Below are positions 2,854 to 58,809 of a stretch of 64,000 nt of DNA, one piece after another. Origin of the DNA: Alphaproteobacteria bacterium (GTDB lineage Bacteria; Pseudomonadota; Alphaproteobacteria; CAAHEQ01; UBA3637); the NCBI GenBank assembly GCA_015062395.1, contig SUUS01000001.1, positions 65,429 to 129,428 of the forward strand, given 5' to 3'. Each line of letters opens with the position of its first letter. Within the stretch, counting starts at the first letter, position 1. Under the pieces are notes generated by a model, which was not told the DNA's origin, ran no database searches, and saw only the letters and a program-made list of their open reading frames with translations. The translations under genes were made by a program, and so were the position numbers.

Positions 2854-3618
2854 ATGAGTATTTCAATTTTAACACCTTATAAGCTTTTTTTTACCACCCA
2901 AGCAGATATTTTATATGCTTTGATGAAGGATGGGCGTATCTTAAAAATCAAGCAAATACCGTATTTTTCGAATCTTTCATCAGACAGAACAATGCTTTGT
3001 GGAATTTTCTTTGATGGAGAAAACACGCATATTATGTCGTCTTCTTTAGGAGTCGATTCGTTCGAAAAAAAAGAAATAGCATCTTTGTTTGGTTATTTTT
3101 ATTATCCTTGTCTTTCTAAAACTGGAAAAATGATGGCAATTATTGAGGCTGACTTACTGAAGCCAAAACCTCAAGGGGAACTGCAAATATACATAAAAAA
3201 GATAAAACGATGGTATTTGCAAAAATCTTTACCTGCAAAAATGAAATCGCCTTTTTTATCCTCAATAGATGAATCCGTCTTTTTTATTGATGAACAAAGT
3301 AATTTATGTAAGTTATTGGGTGATAATAAGACTGTATTAGCTATAGACGTTTTGTTTTTTGCGCTTTCTGCTTCCCAAACAAAAATAGTATATTATAATG
3401 GTTCTATTGTTTATGTGTATTCTCTTTTAAACCGAGCTGAAATAACGTCTTTTCCTGCTACGAATTTAACAGCATTATGCTTTGATGCAACAGAAAACGA
3501 AATTCTTTTTTCTGTATCTCAAGACAATCGTTATGCAATTTATAGTCAAAATTACAAAACAAATAAAACTGTTTTATTGGCTCAACCAGATGAAAGTGTT
3601 GTTTTAATATCTTCTTAA
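2854..3618 (+). CDS. Hypothetical protein (254 aa)
   Basis: Long ORF with AAGGA RBS upstream of ATG 2854; no recognisable motif. Confidence 0.4.
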   Translation: MSISILTPYKLFFTTQADILYALMKDGRILKIKQIPYFSNLSSDRTMLCGIFFDGENTHIMSSSLGVDSFEKKEIASLFGYFYYPCLSKTGKMMAIIEADLLKPKPQGELQIYIKKIKRWYLQKSLPAKMKSPFLSSIDESVFFIDEQSNLCKLLGDNKTVLAIDVLFFALSASQTKIVYYNGSIVYVYSLLNRAEITSFPATNLTALCFDATENEILFSVSQDNRYAIYSQNYKTNKTVLLAQPDESVVLISS

Positions 3619-3685
3619 AAATGATTGATATTTTTATAAAACATGCTATTGTATGAATAGTTTTTTTATAAAAAAGGATAGAATA

Positions 3686-4582
3686 ATGAAGTATTTAAAA
3701 TTTTTACTGTTGAGCAGTGTATTGTTTTCAAGTGTTTCTTTTGCTCAAACACTTGATATAAAGCAAGTCACAAAAGTCATTGAACCTAAAACATTAAATG
3801 CAAATTTCAGACGAATCGGGTTAGAGTTGTCTTCTACAGATGTCAAAAACGCAATCTATTATAAAGATTCTCCTGTAAGTCAATTAAATGCTGACAGCCA
3901 GACGCTGATAAAAGGGATTTTTGATTTTGTATTGGAATACGAAACCAACTATTTCAGATGGGACAACAGTGTTTACGCAGAATATGCAGAAACAAAGTTA
4001 AAACCAGCAGATGAACCAGCAGATACAGACGAATCGGCTGATAAAATTTTATTTTCAACGAATTATACTCAAAAAATATGGGACTTAAAATATGGAAGTC
4101 TTGGACCATTTTTTGATGGCGCCTATCAAACTGAATTTACTCGAAATAATGGGGCTCCTAGGATGAGTGTTATTCGTGGTAAGGTCGGTTTAAAGCTTTT
4201 TGATGGTCTGGTATTTAAAGATTTATATTTGGCTGGTGTCACAGAATATGATGCGACATATTCTCCAAATGTCAATAAAACGGCAGGAGAAATCGGTTTT
4301 CGTATTGAAAAAGAAATCCGAGATGGTGTAAAATTTTCGACAGATGGTTATTATAGACGTTATTTTTCTTTTAGTGAATATGAAACAGAAGATTTAAGAT
4401 ATGATTTAAATTTAACAGCACGTATGGACGTTAAATTAAATGGCTATTTGTCAGTTGGACCATATTTGTCTTATAGAAGAGCTCATGCAAGAGGAACGCC
4501 AGTTGCGGCAAGTAATTTTATGGTAGGCTTGTCTTTTAGTTATAGTGACCTATTTAATTTAATAAAAAAGGATGAAAAATAA
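3686..4582 (+). CDS. Putative outer-membrane beta-barrel protein with signal peptide
   Basis: Start at Met12 of track ORF (AAGGA RBS); signal peptide MKYLKFLLLSSVLFSSVSFAQT; alternating amphipathic beta-strand pattern; C-terminal aromatic-rich end. Confidence 0.5.
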   Translation: MKYLKFLLLSSVLFSSVSFAQTLDIKQVTKVIEPKTLNANFRRIGLELSSTDVKNAIYYKDSPVSQLNADSQTLIKGIFDFVLEYETNYFRWDNSVYAEYAETKLKPADEPADTDESADKILFSTNYTQKIWDLKYGSLGPFFDGAYQTEFTRNNGAPRMSVIRGKVGLKLFDGLVFKDLYLAGVTEYDATYSPNVNKTAGEIGFRIEKEIRDGVKFSTDGYYRRYFSFSEYETEDLRYDLNLTARMDVKLNGYLSVGPYLSYRRAHARGTPVAASNFMVGLSFSYSDLFNLIKKDEK

Positions 4583-34918: not shown

Positions 34919-36637
34919 TTATTGATATTTTTTCATTTCTTCTTCAATCCATTTTTGGGTAAAAGATACAACTTGCTCTAATGGAAGCGTTCCTTTTTCA
35001 TCCGTACCACGAATTTTATATTCGACCATTCCGTTTGCCAAGGCTTTTGGTGCAACAATCAAACGTAAAGGAATTCCCATCAAATCAGCTTCTGCAAATT
35101 GAGGACCTGCACCCAAATTACGATCGTCGTATAAAACTTCAATGCCCAGATTTTCCAATTCAGAATAAAGTTTTTCTGCAGTTTCCCGAACGCCTTCTTT
35201 ATCCATTTGAAGAGCATTTATTTGAACTTGCCATGGGGAAATTGACAAAGGCCATATTGGACCATAATCATCGTGACTAGCTTCAATAACTGATGCCAAC
35301 GTTCTGCCAACACCGATACCATAACATCCCATAATCGGTGTTTGTTCATCGCCATTTTCATCGGTATAGGTCAAGTTCATTGCTTTACTGTAGCGAACAC
35401 CTAACTGGAAAATGTTTCCAACTTCAATACCTCGAACCATTTTTAAAGGAGCACCACATTTAGGGCATTTTTCCCCTTCTTGAACACAGGCGATATCTGC
35501 TATAATAGCGTTTGGAACATCTCTTGATAAATTAAAGTTGTACATATGATAATCAGTTTTATTTGCTCCACACAACAAATTTGCAGTATTGGCAACAGAA
35601 TTATCTACGACTTGGATACAATCGTGCAAACCGATACCACTTGCAAAACCAGGAACAGCCCCTATAGATTCGATTTGCTCATCATTTGCAAATTGGAATG
35701 TTTCTTTTAAAACTTTTGCTAATTTACATTCGTTTACTTCTATATCGCCACGGATAGTCACTGCAACCATTTTTCCACTATCTGTGATATAAAATACCAT
35801 TTTGGCAGTTTGTTCTGGGTGTAAATTAAGTAAAGCACAAACATCTTCAATTGTTTTTACATTTGGCGTATGAACTTCTTGCAAAGGTTTAGGCTCTTCA
35901 TTATTGTATTTGAGCTGACCAGAAGATGCAACTTCTTCGTTTGCAACATAATCGCATTTAGAACACTTTGCGATTTTATCTTCACCAGCGTCACAAATTA
36001 AATCGTATTCATGTGAAACCTTTCCCCCCATCATGCCATTATCTCCTTCAATAGCGACAACTTGAGGGATACCACAACGGGCATAAATACGCGCATAAGC
36101 ATCTGCACAACGGGCATAGTATTGATTTAAATCTTCTTGCGTTCTGTGGAAAGAATAAGCATCCTTCATTGTAAATTCACGAACACGAACCAATCCACCA
36201 CGAGAACGAGCCTCATCACGGAACTTTGTCTGAATTTGATACAGCATAAACGGATATTCTTTATATGAAGTAATCTCACTTCTAGCAATAGCAACACACG
36301 CTTCTTCATGCGTCATTGCTAACAACATTCCATGTTTATTTCTGTCTTGAAAACGCAACAATTCAGATTGAACAGAATCATATCGACCCGTTTCGTCCCA
36401 TAATTCCCTGGGCAAAACAACAGGCATTTTGATTTCTTGTCCTTCAATCGCGTCCATTTCTTGACGAACAATGTTTTCAATTTTTTGAGAAATACGAAAA
36501 GCTGGTGGCAACATCGAATATATACCGTTCGCGACGGGTCGGATATATGCACCACGTAATAAATAAATGTGGCTGATAAGTTGCGCTTCTGTCGGTTTTT
36601 CCTTATAGCGACGACCAATTAATTTGCTATTTCTCAT
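34919..36637 (-). CDS. proS: Proline--tRNA ligase, bacterial type with full INS editing domain (572 aa)
   Basis: Class II motifs (FRDEARSRGGLVRVREFTMKDAYSF motif 2), 572 aa like E. coli-type ProRS; sits next to the conserved plsY-dprA-topA block. Confidence 0.9.
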   Translation of the reverse strand: MRNSKLIGRRYKEKPTEAQLISHIYLLRGAYIRPVANGIYSMLPPAFRISQKIENIVRQEMDAIEGQEIKMPVVLPRELWDETGRYDSVQSELLRFQDRNKHGMLLAMTHEEACVAIARSEITSYKEYPFMLYQIQTKFRDEARSRGGLVRVREFTMKDAYSFHRTQEDLNQYYARCADAYARIYARCGIPQVVAIEGDNGMMGGKVSHEYDLICDAGEDKIAKCSKCDYVANEEVASSGQLKYNNEEPKPLQEVHTPNVKTIEDVCALLNLHPEQTAKMVFYITDSGKMVAVTIRGDIEVNECKLAKVLKETFQFANDEQIESIGAVPGFASGIGLHDCIQVVDNSVANTANLLCGANKTDYHMYNFNLSRDVPNAIIADIACVQEGEKCPKCGAPLKMVRGIEVGNIFQLGVRYSKAMNLTYTDENGDEQTPIMGCYGIGVGRTLASVIEASHDDYGPIWPLSISPWQVQINALQMDKEGVRETAEKLYSELENLGIEVLYDDRNLGAGPQFAEADLMGIPLRLIVAPKALANGMVEYKIRGTDEKGTLPLEQVVSFTQKWIEEEMKKYQ

Positions 36638-42453: not shown

Positions 42454-42530
42454 CGGAGCGTAGCTCAGTCTGGTAGAGTACTTGGTTTGGGACCAAGGTG
42501 CCGTAGGTTCAAATCCTATCGCTCCGACCA
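42454..42530 (+). tRNA. tRNA-Pro (anticodon TGG)
   Basis: 77 nt cloverleaf folded by hand: acceptor CGGAGCG/CGCTCCG, anticodon stem CTTGG/CCAAG loop TTTGGGA, T-arm GGTTCAAATCC, A73, CCA encoded. Confidence 0.9.
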
Positions 42531-42567: not shown

Positions 42568-43058
42568 GTTGTCCAATTCCCCTGCAAAGCCCTAGGACAG
42601 CCAACTGCTGAAAAGTGATTTTATACCAAAATCGATGTGGTTGCCGAGATTTTTCCAAATTGATATATACTTTTGCCCGAATATATATACCTTGTGCAAT
42701 GTGATTTTTTCGCCAGAGCCACTTGACCGTAAGTTATTGTTTTTGAATAATTGATTATAATGGTATGACATTAACTTTCCGAATCTTGCCAAGCAGTGGT
42801 TGGTTTAGAAACCCAAAAACTGATACCACAATTTGCACACACCTCTAAAAGCCTTATTTTATAAGGAGTTTAAATTTTTTATAACTTATACACATGGTGT
42901 TTGGGGCATATAAAGAGATTTTCATTTTTTTTGAAAAAAATGACTATTTTCTTGCAATTTTAGGTAGAAGTCGTTAAAATGTGACGGATTATAATTTTAT
43001 GCTGATAAATGAGGTGTTTTCATGGCAGACGATATTCAAATTCAAAAAATGGACGGCA

Positions 43059-43178
43059 TCACCTTTTTTTCAAGCTTTTTGTGATTGCTTCAATACCCGC
43101 TTTTACAGCGCGGTCAGCATCGGCCTTGGTTAATCCTGCTGTTTTAGCAATAGCTTCAACTAATTCTGTTTTATTCAT
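43059..43178 (-). pseudogene. Remnant of HU/IHF-family DNA-binding protein gene (first ~39 codons intact, then frameshift/decay)
   Basis: Minus-strand translation MNKTELVEAIAKTAGLTKADADRAVKAGIEAITKSLKKR* with AAGGAAA RBS; matches HU N-terminus (MNKTELV..IA...L.K)...; stop within poly-A tract; downstream frames do not resemble HU. Confidence 0.45.
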
Positions 43179-43322
43179 TGTATTTTCCTTTCTTTATATA
43201 TAAAGTTAAATGAAGGCTCATGATACCTTCATTTAGTATTAGAGAGAATTTAGATGGGTATGTCAAGAGGAAAATTAATTATACCAATAATCTGCATTAA
43301 GAGTGGCCAGTAATCTTTTTTC

Positions 43323-43351
43323 TTGACAAAAAAACAAAAAAGTGATATAAT
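43323..43351 (+). promoter_or_regulatory. Perfect consensus sigma70 promoter for second proS
   Basis: TTGACA (43323-43328) - 17 nt - TATAAT (43346-43351); RBS agagagagg before ATG 43394. Confidence 0.7.
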
Positions 43352-43393
43352 ACGACATCGTGTTTTAAACATAAAAAGAGAGAGGCTATAAAA

Positions 43394-44908
43394 ATGACTT
43401 TAAAAAATACAAGAGCGAGCAACTATCCTGAGTGGTATCAGAATGTCATAACTGCAGCTGATATGGCAGAAGTATCTTCTTCGCCAGGATGCATGGTTAT
43501 TAAGCCTTGGGGGTATGGGATATGGGAACGTATTCAACGGGTTCTAGATGATAAGATCAAAGAAACAGGTCATGAGAATTGTTACTTTCCTCTATTTATT
43601 CCTTTAAGCTATTTTCAAAAAGAAGCAGAGCATGTTGAAGGTTTTGCTAAAGAAATGGCAATTGTTACTCATAGTCGCTTAACTATGCAAGATGGCAAAT
43701 TGACACCTGATGGAAAATTGGAAGAACCTCTTATTGTTCGTCCTACCTCTGAAACAATTATTGCGGATTCGTTCTCAAAATGGGTCAAATCATACAGAGA
43801 TTTGCCAATTATGATAAATCAATGGGCAAATGTTGTCCGTTGGGAGATGAGACCAAGAATCTTTTTACGAACAAGAGAGTTTTTATGGCAAGAAGGTCAC
43901 ACTGCACATGCTAGTTATGAGGAAGCGGAACAAGAAGCAAAAACCATGTTGAATGTGTATTCTGATGTGGCACGAGATGCTTTGGCTATGCCTGTTATAA
44001 AAGGACGCAAGCCCGAGCATGAAAAATTCCCAGGCGCTGTTGATACATATTGTATAGAAGCAATGATGCAGGATGGTAGAGCTTTACAAGCTGGTACCTC
44101 GCACTTTTTAGGCCAAAATTTTGCCAAATCAGCTGATATTAAGTTTCTAGGTAAGGATGGGAAACAACAATATGCATACACAACCTCTTGGGGTGTAACG
44201 ACACGTCTAATTGGTAGCTTAATTATGACGCACGCTGATGATGAAGGAATGGTCGTTCCTCCAAAGATTGCACCACATCAAATTGTTATCGTCCCTATCA
44301 TCAAAGATAAAGCTCAAAGAGAGGAAGTAATGTCCTACGTGATGCGCTTGTATTCTGCTTTATCTAAACAGAGCTATGATGGCGAAAAAATTCGTGTAAA
44401 AGTTGATACAAGAGACAAGGAATCTGTAGACAAAATGTGGGAGTGGACACGAAAAGGTGCCCCCATTGTATGTGAGGTTGGACCTCGTGACGTAAAAAAC
44501 AATGGTTTAATGGTCAGAACAAGAAATAAGATCAACACCCCAGAATGGAAACAAGTTGTTCAGTTTGATGATTTTGTTTCATCAGCTTCTAAGAGGTTGG
44601 AAGATTTCCATATGGATTTATATAACGCTGCGAATACTCGTTTACAACAAAATCAAAGAACAGATATTACAACGGCAGAGGAAATGCAAGCATATTTTGC
44701 GCAACAAAACTCTTGGGTAAACGGTCAAGGGCAAAAGGTAGCTTTTGTCCGTGGCAAATGGTCTGAAGATCCAGAAAGCGTTGATAAAATGAAGGAAATG
44801 AAAATTTCAATTCGCTGTATTCCTGAGGATCAATCTCAGAAGGAAGGAAATTGCCTTTTGACTAATAAAAAAGCGAAACTTGATGTTATTTATGCAAGAT
44901 CTTATTAG
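43394..44908 (+). CDS. proS: Proline--tRNA ligase, archaeal/eukaryote-like type (504 aa, C-terminal Tyr)
   Basis: Class II ProRS motifs (IVRPTSETII, FLRTREFLWQEGHTAH), no INS insertion, C-terminal domain ending ...IYARSY typical of archaeal-type ProRS. Confidence 0.9.
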   Translation: MTLKNTRASNYPEWYQNVITAADMAEVSSSPGCMVIKPWGYGIWERIQRVLDDKIKETGHENCYFPLFIPLSYFQKEAEHVEGFAKEMAIVTHSRLTMQDGKLTPDGKLEEPLIVRPTSETIIADSFSKWVKSYRDLPIMINQWANVVRWEMRPRIFLRTREFLWQEGHTAHASYEEAEQEAKTMLNVYSDVARDALAMPVIKGRKPEHEKFPGAVDTYCIEAMMQDGRALQAGTSHFLGQNFAKSADIKFLGKDGKQQYAYTTSWGVTTRLIGSLIMTHADDEGMVVPPKIAPHQIVIVPIIKDKAQREEVMSYVMRLYSALSKQSYDGEKIRVKVDTRDKESVDKMWEWTRKGAPIVCEVGPRDVKNNGLMVRTRNKINTPEWKQVVQFDDFVSSASKRLEDFHMDLYNAANTRLQQNQRTDITTAEEMQAYFAQQNSWVNGQGQKVAFVRGKWSEDPESVDKMKEMKISIRCIPEDQSQKEGNCLLTNKKAKLDVIYARSY

Positions 44909-52400: not shown

Positions 52401-53811
52401 TGTCAATTACGACAAAATCTTTAGGAGTCATATAATTAGGCACCAGAGTACCAATGGATTGCTTTATATCCAAAATCTCAGTTTTTTCGTTTTTCAAGAC
52501 AATAAAAGCGACAAGGAAAGTGGGCCGATTTTCAGCCATTATCGGACAAACAGCACATTCAAGAACATTTTTATCTTTTGATAATAGGTACTCTATTTCT
52601 GCAAGTTCTATTCTATACCCACTTATTTTTACTTGGTCATCTTTTCGCCCAACGAATTCAAGTTGCTTTTTCTTGTTTAGCTTGACAATATCGCCTGTTG
52701 CATATAGAAGATTTTTTGTGTTTTGAGGATCTGGGATGAAAGATTTATTTGTATCCTTTGGATTATTTACATACCCTTTAGCAATAAACGGAGCACAGAT
52801 AAACAATTCACCCTCCGTAGTAGCTGTAAGTTTTTCATTTAGAATTTTTAACTGTATATTGGATATAGGCTTTCCTATGGGAGGGAGTTTCCCCCACTGA
52901 TTAACATTCTTTGGTAATGTAAACGAAGTGACAACATGGGTCTCACTCGGACCATACTGATTGATTAGACGGCAATGCTTTAGAATTTTAAAAAAAGAAC
53001 GAATTACTGGCGTTATAATCAACTGTTCACCGGCTGTGATTACTTCTTTAAGAGAGGTAGGAAAGGTTTTATTAAGATCTGCGATTTGCGCTATGTAATT
53101 TAACATTACTGCGGGGAGAAAAATCCGTTCAATCTTGAACTTGTCAATTAAGTACAGCAGTTTTTCAGGATCTTTTCTTTCATTTTCTTCAATCAGTACT
53201 AATGAAGCACCCGTACATAAAGTAGAAAAAATTTCTTGAAAAGAAACATCGAAGCTAATTGGGGCAAATTGTAATGTTCTTTTTATCGCAGATTCTTTAA
53301 TTTGCCATGTAATAAGATTTTCAAGAACTGATGTTGGCATAACAACACCCTTTGGAGCTCCCGTAGAACCAGAAGTAAATATAATATAGGCCAATTTACC
53401 AAAACCGTTATTGTTTACGGTTTTATTTCCCCTTGAATTTTTAATTATCTTTTCAAAAAAAACAAACTTTTTATTTCTTTTGTCAATGGTTACATCATCT
53501 GTGATAATTAAATTTGTACCGGATTTTTCCTGCATAAAATTCAAACGCTCGACAGGATAACTCTTATCAAGTGGAACATAAGGGTTTCCAGACTTTAGAA
53601 TTCCTAAAATAGAGATAATTAACTCTATTGATCTGTCAAATAGTACTCCTACTGGTTTCTTATAATTTAATGATTTTATATAACCTGCAACTAAATCTGA
53701 TTTGAAATCTAATTCTCCATAAGTTAGCTCTATACCATCCTTAATAATGGCTACCTTATCGGGAGTCTCGACACAAATCTTCTTAAAATTGTTATATAAA
53801 CTACTTTGCAT
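46396..53811 (-). CDS. Hybrid NRPS-PKS megasynthase: A - T - KS - AT - KR - ACP - C (2471 aa)
   Basis: A domain cores (LTYGEL, LKSGNPYVPLD, YIIFTSGSTGAPKGV, YATGD, GRKDDQVKISGYRIELAEIE, PSGKLDR); T (ELGGTSL, Ser ~530); KS (QSACSSS Cys~760, ETHGTGT, NIGHL); AT (GHSLGE Ser~1206); KR (TGGVGALG, NYTTAN); ACP (LGLDSL Ser~1976); C-terminal condensation domain (HHLPFDG ~2165-2171); no TE. Confidence 0.9.
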   Translation of the reverse strand: MQSSLYNNFKKICVETPDKVAIIKDGIELTYGELDFKSDLVAGYIKSLNYKKPVGVLFDRSIELIISILGILKSGNPYVPLDKSYPVERLNFMQEKSGTNLIITDDVTIDKRNKKFVFFEKIIKNSRGNKTVNNNGFGKLAYIIFTSGSTGAPKGVVMPTSVLENLITWQIKESAIKRTLQFAPISFDVSFQEIFSTLCTGASLVLIEENERKDPEKLLYLIDKFKIERIFLPAVMLNYIAQIADLNKTFPTSLKEVITAGEQLIITPVIRSFFKILKHCRLINQYGPSETHVVTSFTLPKNVNQWGKLPPIGKPISNIQLKILNEKLTATTEGELFICAPFIAKGYVNNPKDTNKSFIPDPQNTKNLLYATGDIVKLNKKKQLEFVGRKDDQVKISGYRIELAEIEYLLSKDKNVLECAVCPIMAENRPTFLVAFIVLKNEKTEILDIKQSIGTLVPNYMTPKDFVVIDKLPRTPSGKLDRKVLIQTYIEKKETTTHSELTKLEEIWRDLLHITDFDKNKTFFELGGTSLLLLQLYTKIFETFKQKIPVAMLLKNSTFNAVSDLLKGNIIQGKEAVIQDFGKPVKEKIAVIGMACNFPKCHTPDEFWNFLSTGKESIESFGPSQDLSMLDPFEHDVFCSSTIDDANLFDAEFFGYSKTEAEMMDPQQRKFLELSWELLEKTGYLNNNTTKKIGVFASQGFSSYLVNNLNPNLDYRSNRYFFERFSDLQVMMGGDKDYLPTKVSFKLGLEGPSINVQSACSSSLVAIHLAKQALLNGECEMALVGAVNIMSPSKHKYTFQKDMPWSPDGHTRTFDERSEGMMMAQGLGVVLLKPLSKAIKDKDNILAIISGSGVSNDGNNGKSNFLAPTIDGQTRSLQQALKDANILPDKISFIETHGTGTVVGDAVEIQALKNVFGNNRKRDCVIGSVKTNIGHLGWASGMAGIIKAILCIQHKQIPATLHFKKNNPLLELDDSPFYVNNKTIPWKSKKHYCLVNSFGLGGTNANVILESYSHKKNNQTKQKNNFYLFVFSGKKFEDLVKIIHNHRIFFENHRDLRLQDISYSLLKRKYHFDYRVSFVANTMDRLIYELSNTEKRLKLPSVTKDDFKVSQKQQLAFIFSGYTSQYFGMGKRLYEKNAIFKKKIQECNKIIKKFTDFDLIDIIWKQEKYSEQDVILNQLAIVAIEVSILEILKQMAILPKFVLGHSLGEYVAAYCAGILKLNELLQIVYHRAVLLTSLKIHAKMLAIRANKNTVEKLLENYNEISIASINTPNLVVVSGPTERILSLFKALHDQKIEAQKLDNSSFGHSSVANPLVAVYKKYLSKFSFKDPFIKLLSNVTGDFIQTGEISSDYWCNHMIQPVNFENMIHNLKNKDVDIFLEIGPNSVLLNMVAECYDEQNATYIPMMRKTTDDTEQLLSAFGKLFSKGISVNFDHILPKDNCLLIELPTYPFDLKKYYLEPVDLLQKASWRNDLYKIQWESVSLSNFSKSYIENSLIIGDKSQIAHFSSEKNLLVSTDISNNSFFLKEKLDSFKKKIERIVYVIDSISDDVQNYTSSDILRLYLNKIKNVFYSLKEAFLMGKIENISFIFVGNDFLNESLVSLLKTICLENSEIKCSCFFAKALTENSISKIASCIRQQKSFSFFQIDPGGKSVFEATLAPISLSSERKLTIVPKKQYLVTGGVGALGLLTSKWLIKNGAKRIVIVGRREKNEVIEQIRTLKLLDDTLDLEYISMDISDESKFFALSSKLDIKNIGGIVHAAGCIEDKSFTNTTMEDFKKIAKAKVLGVWNLHKLSLNTQLDFFVVFSSAVSVIGNPGQSNYTTANAFLDSVCKYRISLGLPALSINWGAWGDLGTIDINKNLQQKLEEKGYSYLKKNDFDEIMSSILSLQEQVILLPMNWNIFLRKYKLENSPFFRLLAKDYLPVEEKNTDTLTQYSIQDIPSIVSSEVARVLDKYTHNCHIEKDDDLFDLGLDSLSAIELRNAIRHLLNISFPVSVVFKERTLRNLTAFCIKNCSSKSLDKKLCEKTEIVLDKNNSENKLSYEEQRWVALERIKYGYLLIPILFHCELKKNSFLNALKEVISRHPILTHCYVDNHYETCNIKDFISSESIFVNMKGVENVAEYIKNLACTLTSSFPDITKTPPWILKILKLNNNQFICLLFTHHLPFDGTSVTVFVEELRKFYASFLQKSHLRLPNPVLYDQYVDWQHKFLLETEKENEAFFGGLYAGIARPVILPNKTGDEFFEQCYPSSCYTIFSSEKVYESLNKFAHKAHVSVFSVLLFVYSKLLVKLTRQHNLLIGTVFNGRTEDNFKETIGPFVKQFPLPISLDETLSNMTQITQINSIVSLVNERSYYPVNLLPKYVEKFLNFSRSSYFTDAYIMLNNYHKEKDNVWPKVEVLETLGTISEPLLNTLNYSTLRELAGLFLIVDMQKSNLRFNFWYHVHRFDINTIKDWASLYISLLEDTVKEE

Positions 53812-56840: not shown

Positions 56841-56912
56841 AATTCATACATCAAATCATTCAAACATTTTCGTTTAGTATACTTTAAAATACACCCTAGA
56901 GTCAACAAAAAA

Positions 56913-57353
56913 TTACTCACTGACAGCAGTTGAAGAAAAAATAGCTTCTGCAACAATTCTATTGTTGATTCTAATTGTTCCTTCAAACTTATAAGCATTA
57001 CCGATAGAGTGTTTTTTTATAGCCTCAATGTAAAGAGTATCTCCAGGGCGAGCTTGCCCTCTAAATTTTGCACTTTCAATAGTCATAAAAAGAAAAATTA
57101 AATTATGACATTTTCTTTCTTTAAGGTCAAAATACATCAGTATATTCGACAATTGGGACATTGCTTCAACAAAGAAAGTTCCAGGAAAAATGGGGTTATT
57201 TGGGAAATGTCCTTTTAAGAAGAATTCATCTGATGAAATTTCTTTTATGCCCGAAATTTTATCACTGGTATAGTCCAACACAGCGTCAACCATCAACATA
57301 GGATAACGATGCGGAAGAATTGTTTTTATTTTTTCTAAATCTAAACTTGGCAT
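56913..57353 (-). CDS. 3-hydroxyacyl-ACP dehydratase FabZ-like (hotdog fold)
   Basis: LPHRYPMLMVD and GHFPNNPIFPG FabZ signatures; first gene of minus-strand biosynthetic operon. Confidence 0.8.
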   Translation of the reverse strand: MPSLDLEKIKTILPHRYPMLMVDAVLDYTSDKISGIKEISSDEFFLKGHFPNNPIFPGTFFVEAMSQLSNILMYFDLKERKCHNLIFLFMTIESAKFRGQARPGDTLYIEAIKKHSIGNAYKFEGTIRINNRIVAEAIFSSTAVSE

Positions 57354-57376
57354 AAAAACTCCACTGGCTAGTTAGT

Positions 57377-57440
57377 ATGGAAAATTTGTGATAAGAACAA
57401 CTTTTTAGACAGGGACAAAAGAATGTGTCTAAAAAGTTGT
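57377..57440. repeat. 25-bp perfect inverted repeat (hairpin, 14-nt loop) between tRNA-Pro(CGG) and FabZ-like gene
   Basis: tgtgataagaacaactttttagaca (57377-57401) / tgtctaaaaagttgttcttatcaca (57416-57440), loop gggacaaaagaatg. Confidence 0.8.
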
Positions 57441-57452
57441 TCTTATCACATT

Positions 57453-57529
57453 TGGTCGGAGTGGCGGGATTTGAACCCACGACCCCTACGTCCCGAACGT
57501 AGTGCTCTACCAAACTGAGCTACACTCCG
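57453..57529 (-). tRNA. tRNA-Pro (anticodon CGG)
   Basis: Minus-strand 77-nt cloverleaf: acceptor CGGAGTG/CACTCCG, anticodon stem CTACG/CGTAG loop TTCGGGA, T-arm GGTTCAAATCC, A73, CCA encoded. Confidence 0.85.
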
Positions 57530-57653
57530 ATTTTTTATTTATCTTTTTTTGAAGTTATATCAAAAGAACCATAAAACATCAAGTATTTTTTAAAATTTTC
57601 TTGCCTTTTTTGCTATTTTCCAATATCATCAAATTAAAAAGTTGGAGTAAAAT

Positions 57654-58073
57654 ATGACAAAGTACGAAGAAAAAGTAAAACAATTTCACAAAGTAATGAA
57701 CTTACCTGTAAATAGTCAATTTAACGTTGAATTATTACAGTTAAGAAAAAAACTTATTTTAGAAGAAACTCAAGAACTTATTGCAGAGTTGGATTATGCG
57801 ATTAACCAACTTCAGACAAAAGATAAGTCCGTTTTACGCCCTACTTTCGAAAATATGTGTAAAGAAATGGCCGATGTACAATATGCTTTATCAGGACTGG
57901 CTATTTCTTTTGGTTTACCGATAGAAGAAGCTTTTGATGCTACACACAACAGCAATATGTCTAAATTAGGTAATGATGGGAAACCCGTTTACAGAGAAGA
58001 TGGAAAGATTACCAAAGGTCCAAATTATCATAAGCCAGATTTATCAAATCTTATTCAGAAAGTAGAAGAATAA
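57654..58073 (+). CDS. MazG-like nucleotide pyrophosphohydrolase family protein
   Basis: 139 aa all-alpha; EExxE/ExxD-type motifs LILEETQELIAEL ... EMADVQYAL; GGAG RBS. Confidence 0.5.
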   Translation: MTKYEEKVKQFHKVMNLPVNSQFNVELLQLRKKLILEETQELIAELDYAINQLQTKDKSVLRPTFENMCKEMADVQYALSGLAISFGLPIEEAFDATHNSNMSKLGNDGKPVYREDGKITKGPNYHKPDLSNLIQKVEE

Positions 58074-58074
58074 A

Positions 58075-58809
58075 ATGGAAAAATTCATTCAAAATCATCA
58101 CATATACAGCTATGAATGTGACAAAGAAGGAAAATTAAGGTTATTAACATTATTCAATCTTTTGCAACACATGGCCGATTCGCATGCAGATTTATTAAAT
58201 CTTGGATATAAAAATTTTTCCACTCGAAATATAACTTGGGTTGGTTCGCATTATGCACTTCACATAAATAAACGTCCAAAATGGAATGAAAACGTTATTA
58301 TTGAAACATGGCCATCTGGTTTGGGACCTGTTTCTGCGATTCGAGACTTTAGGGTTCTATCCCCCAAAAATGAACCTTTATTTACTGCATCGAGTCAATG
58401 GGTCATAATTGATTTAAGTTCTGGTCGGCCTCAACCGACAAAAAAATATGTTAATAATTTAGAATCGCTTGAAGAAAGAGCTCTTGATACAAAGTTTCCT
58501 ACCATACCAACTGTTCAAAGACAGGATTTTCAGAAAGATTTTTATGTTCGTTACGATGATATAGACATCAATCAACATGTGAATAATGCTATTTATCCTG
58601 TTTGGGCTAGCGAGTCGGTCCCTAATGACTTTAGAGAATCGAACGAAATCGAAGATTTAGAAATTTCATTCAAAAAACCAGCATTTTATGGACAAAAAAT
58701 AAAAGTTTCAACTCAAATTGATGAAAATACATCGCTTCATCAAATTTTTTCAGATGATAAAAGCATTGAATTTGCTCGCATTCGTATAAAATGGCGTAAA
58801 AAAAGTTAA
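58075..58809 (+). CDS. Acyl-ACP thioesterase (FAT/FatA-B family, tandem hotdog)
   Basis: 244 aa; YECDKEGKLRL..., NQHVNNAIY conserved acyl-ACP TE motifs; 1-nt gap after MazG-like gene. Confidence 0.7.
   Translation: MEKFIQNHHIYSYECDKEGKLRLLTLFNLLQHMADSHADLLNLGYKNFSTRNITWVGSHYALHINKRPKWNENVIIETWPSGLGPVSAIRDFRVLSPKNEPLFTASSQWVIIDLSSGRPQPTKKYVNNLESLEERALDTKFPTIPTVQRQDFQKDFYVRYDDIDINQHVNNAIYPVWASESVPNDFRESNEIEDLEISFKKPAFYGQKIKVSTQIDENTSLHQIFSDDKSIEFARIRIKWRKKS

Follow-up and report, generated by a model that had tools for sequence, protein, structure and literature searches.

A long perfect hairpin behind tRNA-Pro(CGG) in an uncultured alphaproteobacterium: probably an island-borne terminator lengthened at its junction with a biosynthetic cluster

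Comparative analysis suggests that the perfect 25-bp hairpin lying between tRNA-Pro(CGG) and the first gene of a biosynthetic cluster is the terminator on the end of an island integrated at this tRNA gene, lengthened by a copying error at the junction with the cluster, and that it is the sole candidate for a terminator of the tRNA. We hold this to be the probable account, with a good deal of room left for doubt. The 25-bp stem is best explained as a putative island-borne terminator stem of 16 bp to which a palindromic extension of 9 bp was added at the island/cluster breakpoint, and the rearrangement junction, of which it would be a mutational by-product, best accounts for its unusual length. 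Throughout, the window denotes the whole 64-kb stretch of DNA that was analysed.

Results and discussion

Geometry and statistics of the hairpin

The inverted repeat is perfect over 25 of 25 positions, with arms at 57387-57411 and 57426-57450 separated by a 14-nt spacer. Read in the RNA sense of the minus strand, the hairpin (57387-57450) consists of a 5' arm at 57426-57450, a loop at 57412-57425 and a 3' arm at 57387-57411, joined by 25 perfect pairs. The palindrome and its 14-nt loop had been recognized in the first-pass annotation, but the interval given there (57377-57440) and all of its coordinates are shifted by 10 nt. The distances likewise require correction: the hairpin starts 2 nt, and not 13 nt, past the encoded CCA of tRNA-Pro(CGG), and the ATG of the FabZ-like gene (57351-57353) lies 33 nt downstream of its end rather than about 24 nt.

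Such a repeat is far beyond chance. In 100 shuffled windows there was not one 25-mer match, even with up to 3 mismatches allowed, and within the window itself, the GC content of which is about 32%, the hairpin is the only perfect inverted repeat of more than 15 nt. The folding energy, a calculation that the first-pass annotation had recommended, amounts to -35.1 kcal/mol, with a z score of about -12 (-11.7 to -13) relative to shuffled sequences. The stem is longer than that of an ordinary terminator, as had been remarked, with 25 perfect pairs versus the typical 5-14. A terminator scan did not call the hairpin, the 14-nt loop of which exceeds the 3-8-nt limit of the tool. The hairpin is no assembly artefact, because 10 independent metagenome contigs from JGI/ENA (L001-L010) are identical to the window across it.

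tRNA-Pro(CGG) as a site of integration

The tRNA-Pro(CGG) gene, which encodes its CCA, occupies 57453-57529 on the minus strand (detected by ARAGORN; 67.2 bits with Rfam). It is a syntenic core gene, belonging to a RecJ, thioesterase, tRNA neighborhood, and is found in the same orientation beside RecJ/thioesterase in three of the closer relatives, L016, L017 and L018. The RecJ of L016 is 82% identical to that of the window and is followed directly by the tRNA, and in L017 and L018 (73% identity) the tRNA comes after RecJ and the thioesterase. Behind the tRNA each of the three has a different short U-run terminator (-9.5 to -21.8 kcal/mol) and different downstream genes, and further distinct terminators and cargo are seen at this position in L029-L031. 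Since the 3' flank of tRNA-Pro(CGG) differs across the relatives, the gene appears to be an integration hot spot; tRNA genes in general are hot spots for the integration of islands (PMC4891358). The hairpin module is probably the replacement terminator of one incoming element. Uninformative in this respect were L015 and L019-L022, which have no tRNA at the locus, and L032, the contig of which stops short of it. On the other side of the tRNA and divergent from it, the plus strand of the window bears a MazG/PRA-PH-like gene fused into one operon with an acyl-ACP thioesterase (57654-58809); in L015 and L017-L019 the thioesterase is present and the MazG-like gene is absent.

The same module in a sheep-rectum genome

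The closest counterpart of the hairpin comes from L014, a 5.6-kb contig of a metagenome-assembled genome (MAG) from sheep rectum. The 55 nt behind the tRNA-Pro(CGG) of L014 match the window at 55 of 55 positions (57396-57450, minus strand); between the tRNAs there are about 7 differences. This module comprises a 9-nt 5' flank, TGTGATAAG (57442-57450), the inner 16-bp stem (57426-57441 paired with 57396-57411) and the loop. After the bases GTTGTT the two sequences diverge, L014 reading TTTTGTTTAGG and the window CTTATCACAAATTTTCC. The stem of L014 has 16 Watson-Crick pairs, or 19 when A-U and G-U pairs into the U-run are included, is followed by UUUUUGUUU, and folds with -21 kcal/mol. To judge from its sequence, this version is an ordinary intrinsic terminator. 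The homology between L014 and the window covers about 156 nt, namely the tRNA and the hairpin, and both flanks differ; a DUF3078 protein that the two have in common elsewhere is only about 55% identical.

The boundaries of the element that carries the module could be traced with the help of L028, a sister strain of L014 (the neighboring zeta-toxin protein is 98% identical). L014 and L028 are collinear through the tRNA end and a following ATT, and become collinear again from L014 position 5187, 2077 bp later, L028 representing the empty site for this 2.1-kb insertion of L014. The insertion is flanked by the 9-nt repeat CGACCAATT, made up of the last six bases of the tRNA and three more, and the hairpin module is its very first sequence. 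Its remaining content is an IS3-family element (3178-4529) that lacks a target duplication and sits 11 nt past the hairpin, and an AbiU2-like gene. About 150 nt beyond the insertion, 20 nt of the tRNA 3' end are repeated exactly, with the displaced classical terminator behind them, and L028 contains tandem att-like remnants. A block of about 150 nt (AAAGACCGCCGTTTGGCGGTTTTTG...GGCACGAAT, then the tRNA-3'-end repeat) recurs behind tRNA-Pro(CGG) in L028 (10808-11125), L014 (5187-5393) and L029 (10640-10900); it is present in two copies in L028 and diverged in L029, and looks as if att remnants had accumulated in tandem. In L014 the terminator that follows the final repeat resembles that of tRNA-Pro(TGG) in the window (86% over 63 nt).

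The L014 copy has both marks of an island, direct repeats of the tRNA 3' end and an empty site in a relative; for the window copy neither was found. No right-end att repeat was recovered from the window with the 20-mer (up to 3 mismatches), the 13-mer (up to 2 mismatches) or the 9-nt core. The tRNA-Pro(TGG) gene at 42454-42530 has a similar 3' end, but stands in inverted orientation and has a classical terminator of its own. A search for an empty-site strain of the window's species yielded none, the contigs with an identical FabZ-like gene or RecJ all having the same arrangement (99.98-100% identity over 6.3-11.6 kb). No tyrosine or serine recombinase was detected in the L014 island, the only genes of which are those for an IS3-family transposase and the AbiU2-like protein, or among the 20 window ORFs scanned (34919 to 63992), and for want of a recombinase we treat both copies as decayed remnants. 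The earlier suggestion of a relic att or recombination site is hence close to the mark in one respect, as the module of L014 lies first inside an island bounded by tRNA-3'-end repeats, but the hairpin adjoins the att core and is not the core itself.

The junction with the cluster

On the cluster side, blastn homology with L026, a relative of the cluster (94.9% over 908 nt), begins at window position 57383, 4 nt from the base of the stem, and on the tRNA side the homology with L014 stops at 57393-57396. The interval between them is a 12-nt filler, CTTATCACAAAT (57384-57395, minus strand), which has no homology to the L014 module or to the L026 leader. Its first 9 bases of 12 are the reverse complement of the 5' flank TGTGATAAG; in other words, a 9-nt palindromic extension, CTTATCACA (57387-57395, minus strand), is the exact reverse complement of 57442-57450 and stands where L014 has its U-run. 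No other donor for the filler was found in the window or in the 49 fetched loci. At the join, the U-run of L014 and the leader of L026 have the microhomology TTT(T) in common. An alternative placement of the junction, at an AAAAAnTTGT microhomology suggested by a MAFFT alignment of the 3' arm with the L026 promoter, was rejected: no more than about 50% of the positions between it and TTTC are identical, and the homology seen by blastn begins at 57383.

Inverted copying of neighboring bases into a junction filler is the hallmark of fold-back/template-switch synthesis, and this mechanism is the most likely origin of the extension. Template switching at imperfect inverted repeats is known to make and to extend perfect hairpins (PMC8794818, PMC7202029, PMC13100816). 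In the present case the complementarity to 57442-57450 is 9 of 9, and L014, the one outgroup from which the polarity of the change is read, has 16 bp followed by unrelated bases.

The cluster and its promoters

The first gene of the cluster encodes a FabZ/ApeI-like dehydratase (56913-57353, minus strand; Pfam FabA, 2.5e-25, with ApeI-like/ApeP-like precomputed hits). It is followed on the same strand by genes for a 258-aa protein of unknown function, a zinc-ADH-like enzyme, a KAS III, an ACP and a 2471-aa megasynthase with the domains AMP-binding, ACP, KS, AT, KR, ACP and C. Facing the megasynthase on the opposite strand are genes for a PPTase, an ATP-grasp enzyme and a second prolyl-tRNA synthetase. 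In the megasynthase gene an otherwise identical contig from JGI 3300032167 (L001 position 5271, window 53201) has TGA for TTA at codon 204, a nonsense variant in the natural population, and the ends of three of the contigs of about 9.6 kb (L002-L004) all fall into a stretch of about 80 bp, around 52869-52950, some 900 nt into the gene.

Homologues of the FabZ-like protein are few. Among them are those of L026 (95% amino acid identity) and L023-L025 (76%, with the same gene order), loci that have neither a tRNA nor a hairpin upstream of the cluster. Instead, they share a conserved promoter 35-40 nt before the ATG, with TTGATT or TTGTTT, a 17-nt spacer and TATAAT. Upstream of that promoter L026 has, at 38-232, a 64-aa ORF with a lipoprotein-type signal (…LSALSGC…), a different cluster context on a contig of 1.2 kb. 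The window retains merely the last 30 nt of this leader (57354-57383, minus strand), which match L026 at 28 of 30 positions and include the Shine-Dalgarno sequence GGAG (57359-57362) 5 nt before the ATG; the -35/-10 promoter of the L026/L023-L025 type is absent. A promoter scan detected no promoter-like site between the tRNA and the ATG of the FabZ-like gene. One candidate within the hairpin, TTGTTC-15-CATACT, was discarded: it matches at only 7 of 12 positions, has a short spacer of 15 nt and was not flagged by the scan.

Because its own promoter has been lost, the FabZ-like gene is most likely transcribed by read-through from the promoter of the tRNA. A candidate for the latter, recognized by its match to the consensus only, lies at 57554-57582 on the minus strand: a -35 element TTGATG (57577-57582), a 17-nt spacer and a -10 element TATAAC (57554-57559) preceded by TG. 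The promoter scan missed it on account of the C that ends its -10 element. The hairpin is probably the only terminator of the tRNA and would as such limit the read-through into the FabZ-like gene. The proposal of a strong tRNA terminator is right in part. In its favor stand the terminator-type core directly behind the tRNA and the 16-19-bp stem with UUUUUGUUU in L014; however, the U-tract that follows the stem in the window, AAUUUUCC (57379-57386, minus strand), is a weak one, with four U and an onset 2 nt after the stem, whereas in L014 the run of U begins directly after it.

The rest of the cluster has a promoter of its own. Separating the FabZ-like gene from the gene for the 258-aa protein are 72 nt that contain TTGACT-18-TATACT (56876-56905, minus strand), the hexamers of which are invariant in the window, in the 95% relative L026 and in the 76% relative L023, while the spacer varies. 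As this internal promoter is conserved in all three versions of the cluster, the description of the hairpin as the prime cis-element of cluster expression is overstated.

A proposed sequence of events

In the scenario that we favor, an island would have integrated into the last bases of tRNA-Pro(CGG) and pushed the native terminator away, supplying in its place a terminator with an AU-rich stem of 16-19 bp and a subsequent U-run. A remnant of this island, about 67 nt long, would later have been fused straight to the 5' leader of the FabZ-like gene, with loss of the promoter of the latter. Synthesis at the breakpoint, most likely of the fold-back/template-switch type, would have added 9 nt that repeat the 5' flank in inverted orientation, lengthening the stem to 25 perfect pairs and replacing the original U-run. 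This extension would have buried the single-stranded spacer after the CCA, and may have altered both the efficiency of termination and the 3' processing of the tRNA. In its present form the hairpin, together with the AAUUUU that follows, is predicted to set the amount of transcription from the tRNA promoter that reaches the FabZ-like gene, and its perfect 25-bp RNA duplex would be a suitable substrate for RNase III. Genes 2-6, having their own conserved promoter, would be largely independent of it.

Alternative explanations

The direction of the change is read from L014 as the single outgroup, and the 25-bp form could be the older of the two. The palindrome would then be the original island end, for example a cruciform or a site bound by a recombination protein, L014 would have a truncated version of it, and the breakpoint would have been drawn to its fragile base. 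Long palindromes are indeed known sites of breakage; moreover, just two versions of the module are known, their polarity is not fixed by independent means, and the IS3-family element without target duplications 11 nt past the L014 hairpin indicates that this flank was disturbed as well. Nevertheless, the UUUUUGUUU right after the L014 stem fits the design of a terminator, as do all other hairpins behind tRNA-Pro in the lineage, and the extra 9 nt fall inside a 12-nt interval that belongs to neither parent, which is expected of junction filler and not of an inherited arm. These two points lead us to regard an ancestral palindrome as unlikely, if the most serious of the competing views. A further possibility concerns function rather than origin, namely that the hairpin is mainly a processing stem, at which RNase III cuts the tRNA from the mRNA and sets the stability of the latter, termination being secondary. 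The classical RNase III substrate is a duplex of more than two helical turns, a size attained by the 25 uninterrupted pairs, which also surpass the minimum of about 20 bp of continuous duplex by which such substrates were recognized here. The stem starts 2 nt after the CCA and buries the spacer that is free in L014, leaving little access for another endonuclease, and a close relative has an RNase III gene. Yet such processing is compatible with a lengthened terminator and does not exclude it, and the L014 form, shorter and with a G-U pair, evidently works without it; as the principal role of the hairpin we consider it improbable.

A dedicated regulator of the cluster, be it an attenuator, a riboswitch-like leader or the operator of a DNA-binding regulator, selected for the control of biosynthesis, is suggested by the position of the hairpin between a promoter-bearing tRNA gene and a promoterless first cluster gene. 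The comparative data largely refute it, and we deem it very improbable: the homologous clusters have a normal promoter in place of the hairpin, the identical module occurs in L014 where there is no cluster, ahead of an IS element and an AbiU2-like gene, and genes 2-6 are served by the conserved internal promoter. Moreover, no alternative, anti-terminator fold was found and there is no adjacent regulator gene. Among the Rfam covariance models only that of the tRNA passed the gathering score, the matches to the hairpin being sub-threshold ones to generic microRNA-precursor and long-hairpin models. From the idea of an attenuator gating transcription out of the tRNA promoter, read-through survives as the most likely source of FabZ-like transcripts, the gene's promoter being lost, but the absence of any alternative structure or Rfam family speaks against a dedicated attenuator; for a regulator operator we found no supporting evidence, and homologous clusters do without the hairpin. 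Least credible of all, and to our minds close to dismissed, is membership in a dispersed family of REP- or MITE-like repeats, even though a long AT-rich palindrome in an intergenic region would be typical of such a family. Of the further copies that the first-pass annotation proposed to look for, none turned up in the sequence covered: the 64-kb window, the part of this genome that was examined, contains no second hairpin with up to 3 mismatches allowed, and a scan of one genome per species (185,579 species) with a 20-mer of the arm returned L014 once and three unrelated single-arm matches attributable to chance, the MAG of L014 having one copy of the module and the other representative genomes none. 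There were 0 matches in viral contigs for the arm and 0 for the loop region, and blastn against phage and plasmid records produced only weak chance matches. In the JGI metagenome collection a 22-mer of the loop region had 0 matches and a 19-mer of the arm had 17, all of them single-arm chance matches; since this collection evidently lacks even the hairpin-bearing JGI contigs L001-L008, its negative outcome carries little weight.

Surroundings and significance

The bacterium has an outer membrane, as is evident from the presence of an autotransporter gene. The second prolyl-tRNA synthetase (ProRS) beside the PPTase and ATP-grasp genes (43394-44908, plus strand) has a ProRS-C_1 domain, and at a distance of 7 kb there is a ProRS of the bacterial type that includes an editing domain (34919-36637, minus strand). 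The extra enzyme could confer self-resistance, or could load proline for the terminal C domain of the megasynthase. A consensus-like promoter, TTGACA-17-TATAAT, is located just upstream of its gene. The region as a whole spans 15 kb between tRNA-Pro(TGG) (42454-42530, plus strand) and tRNA-Pro(CGG) (57453-57529, minus strand), the 3' ends of which face inward. Between the terminator of tRNA-Pro(TGG) and the second ProRS gene about 800 bp (42570-43390) are apparently non-coding, and include a truncated HU-like reading frame (43059-43178, minus strand), MNKTELVEAIAKTAGLTKADADRAVKAGIEAITKSLKK.

A bolder reading, which we offer as speculation and think decidedly doubtful, is that the fold-back event, in creating the 25-bp duplex, rewired the first cluster gene to the tRNA-Pro promoter through an RNase III-dependent processing or attenuation gate, so that tRNA, hairpin and cluster would work as one proline-linked unit. 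If true, it would tie the transcription of a tRNA-Pro to a cluster that possesses a second prolyl-tRNA synthetase and is flanked on both sides by tRNA-Pro genes, and the function of the whole would relate to the supply of proline or to a proline-containing product.

For the mining of biosynthetic clusters, the region upstream of the first gene would, on our interpretation, not be a native regulatory region, and the FabZ-like gene probably relies on leak-through from the tRNA. Attempts at heterologous expression and predictions of activity should hence allow for the lost promoter of this gene and for the separate promoter of the rest of the cluster. For the study of genome evolution, the locus would be a clean natural case from bacteria of a long perfect hairpin derived from a shorter functional terminator by templated palindromic growth at a rearrangement junction. 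In addition, it shows tRNA-Pro(CGG) to be a busy hot spot of integration in an alphaproteobacterial lineage of the ruminant gut that is known from uncultured members.

Comparison with known systems

The usual intrinsic terminator has 5-14 GC-rich pairs and a loop of 3-8 nt. Like those behind other tRNAs, the hairpin is a stem-loop directly downstream of the tRNA, in the same orientation and followed by U, a description that fits L014 and all other post-tRNA-Pro hairpins of the lineage; the window hairpin differs in its 25 perfect AU-rich pairs, its 14-nt loop and a UUUU that begins 2 nt after the stem. With the RNase III stems of rRNA operons and of the early mRNA of phage T7 it has in common a long perfect duplex placed between a stable RNA and a downstream transcript, a likeness that is purely structural. 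As in tDNA islands, such as those at the Asn tDNAs of Klebsiella (PMC4891358), the L014 module lies just inside a repeat-bounded insertion, L028 has the empty site and tandem att-like remnants, and the 3' flank differs in every relative; here, however, there is no integrase, the window keeps about 67 nt of the island end with no right-end repeat, and the hairpin adjoins the att core. Unlike the quasipalindrome or template-switch mutations described previously (PMC8794818, PMC7202029, PMC13100816), the event proposed here, as polarized by one outgroup, coincides with a junction of two unrelated sequences and is not a correction in place, but as in those mutations a single step can explain 9 adjacent bases, turning an imperfect 16+9 arrangement into 25 perfect base pairs. 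The hairpin is a slightly unusual case of known kinds, and no new kind of regulatory element.
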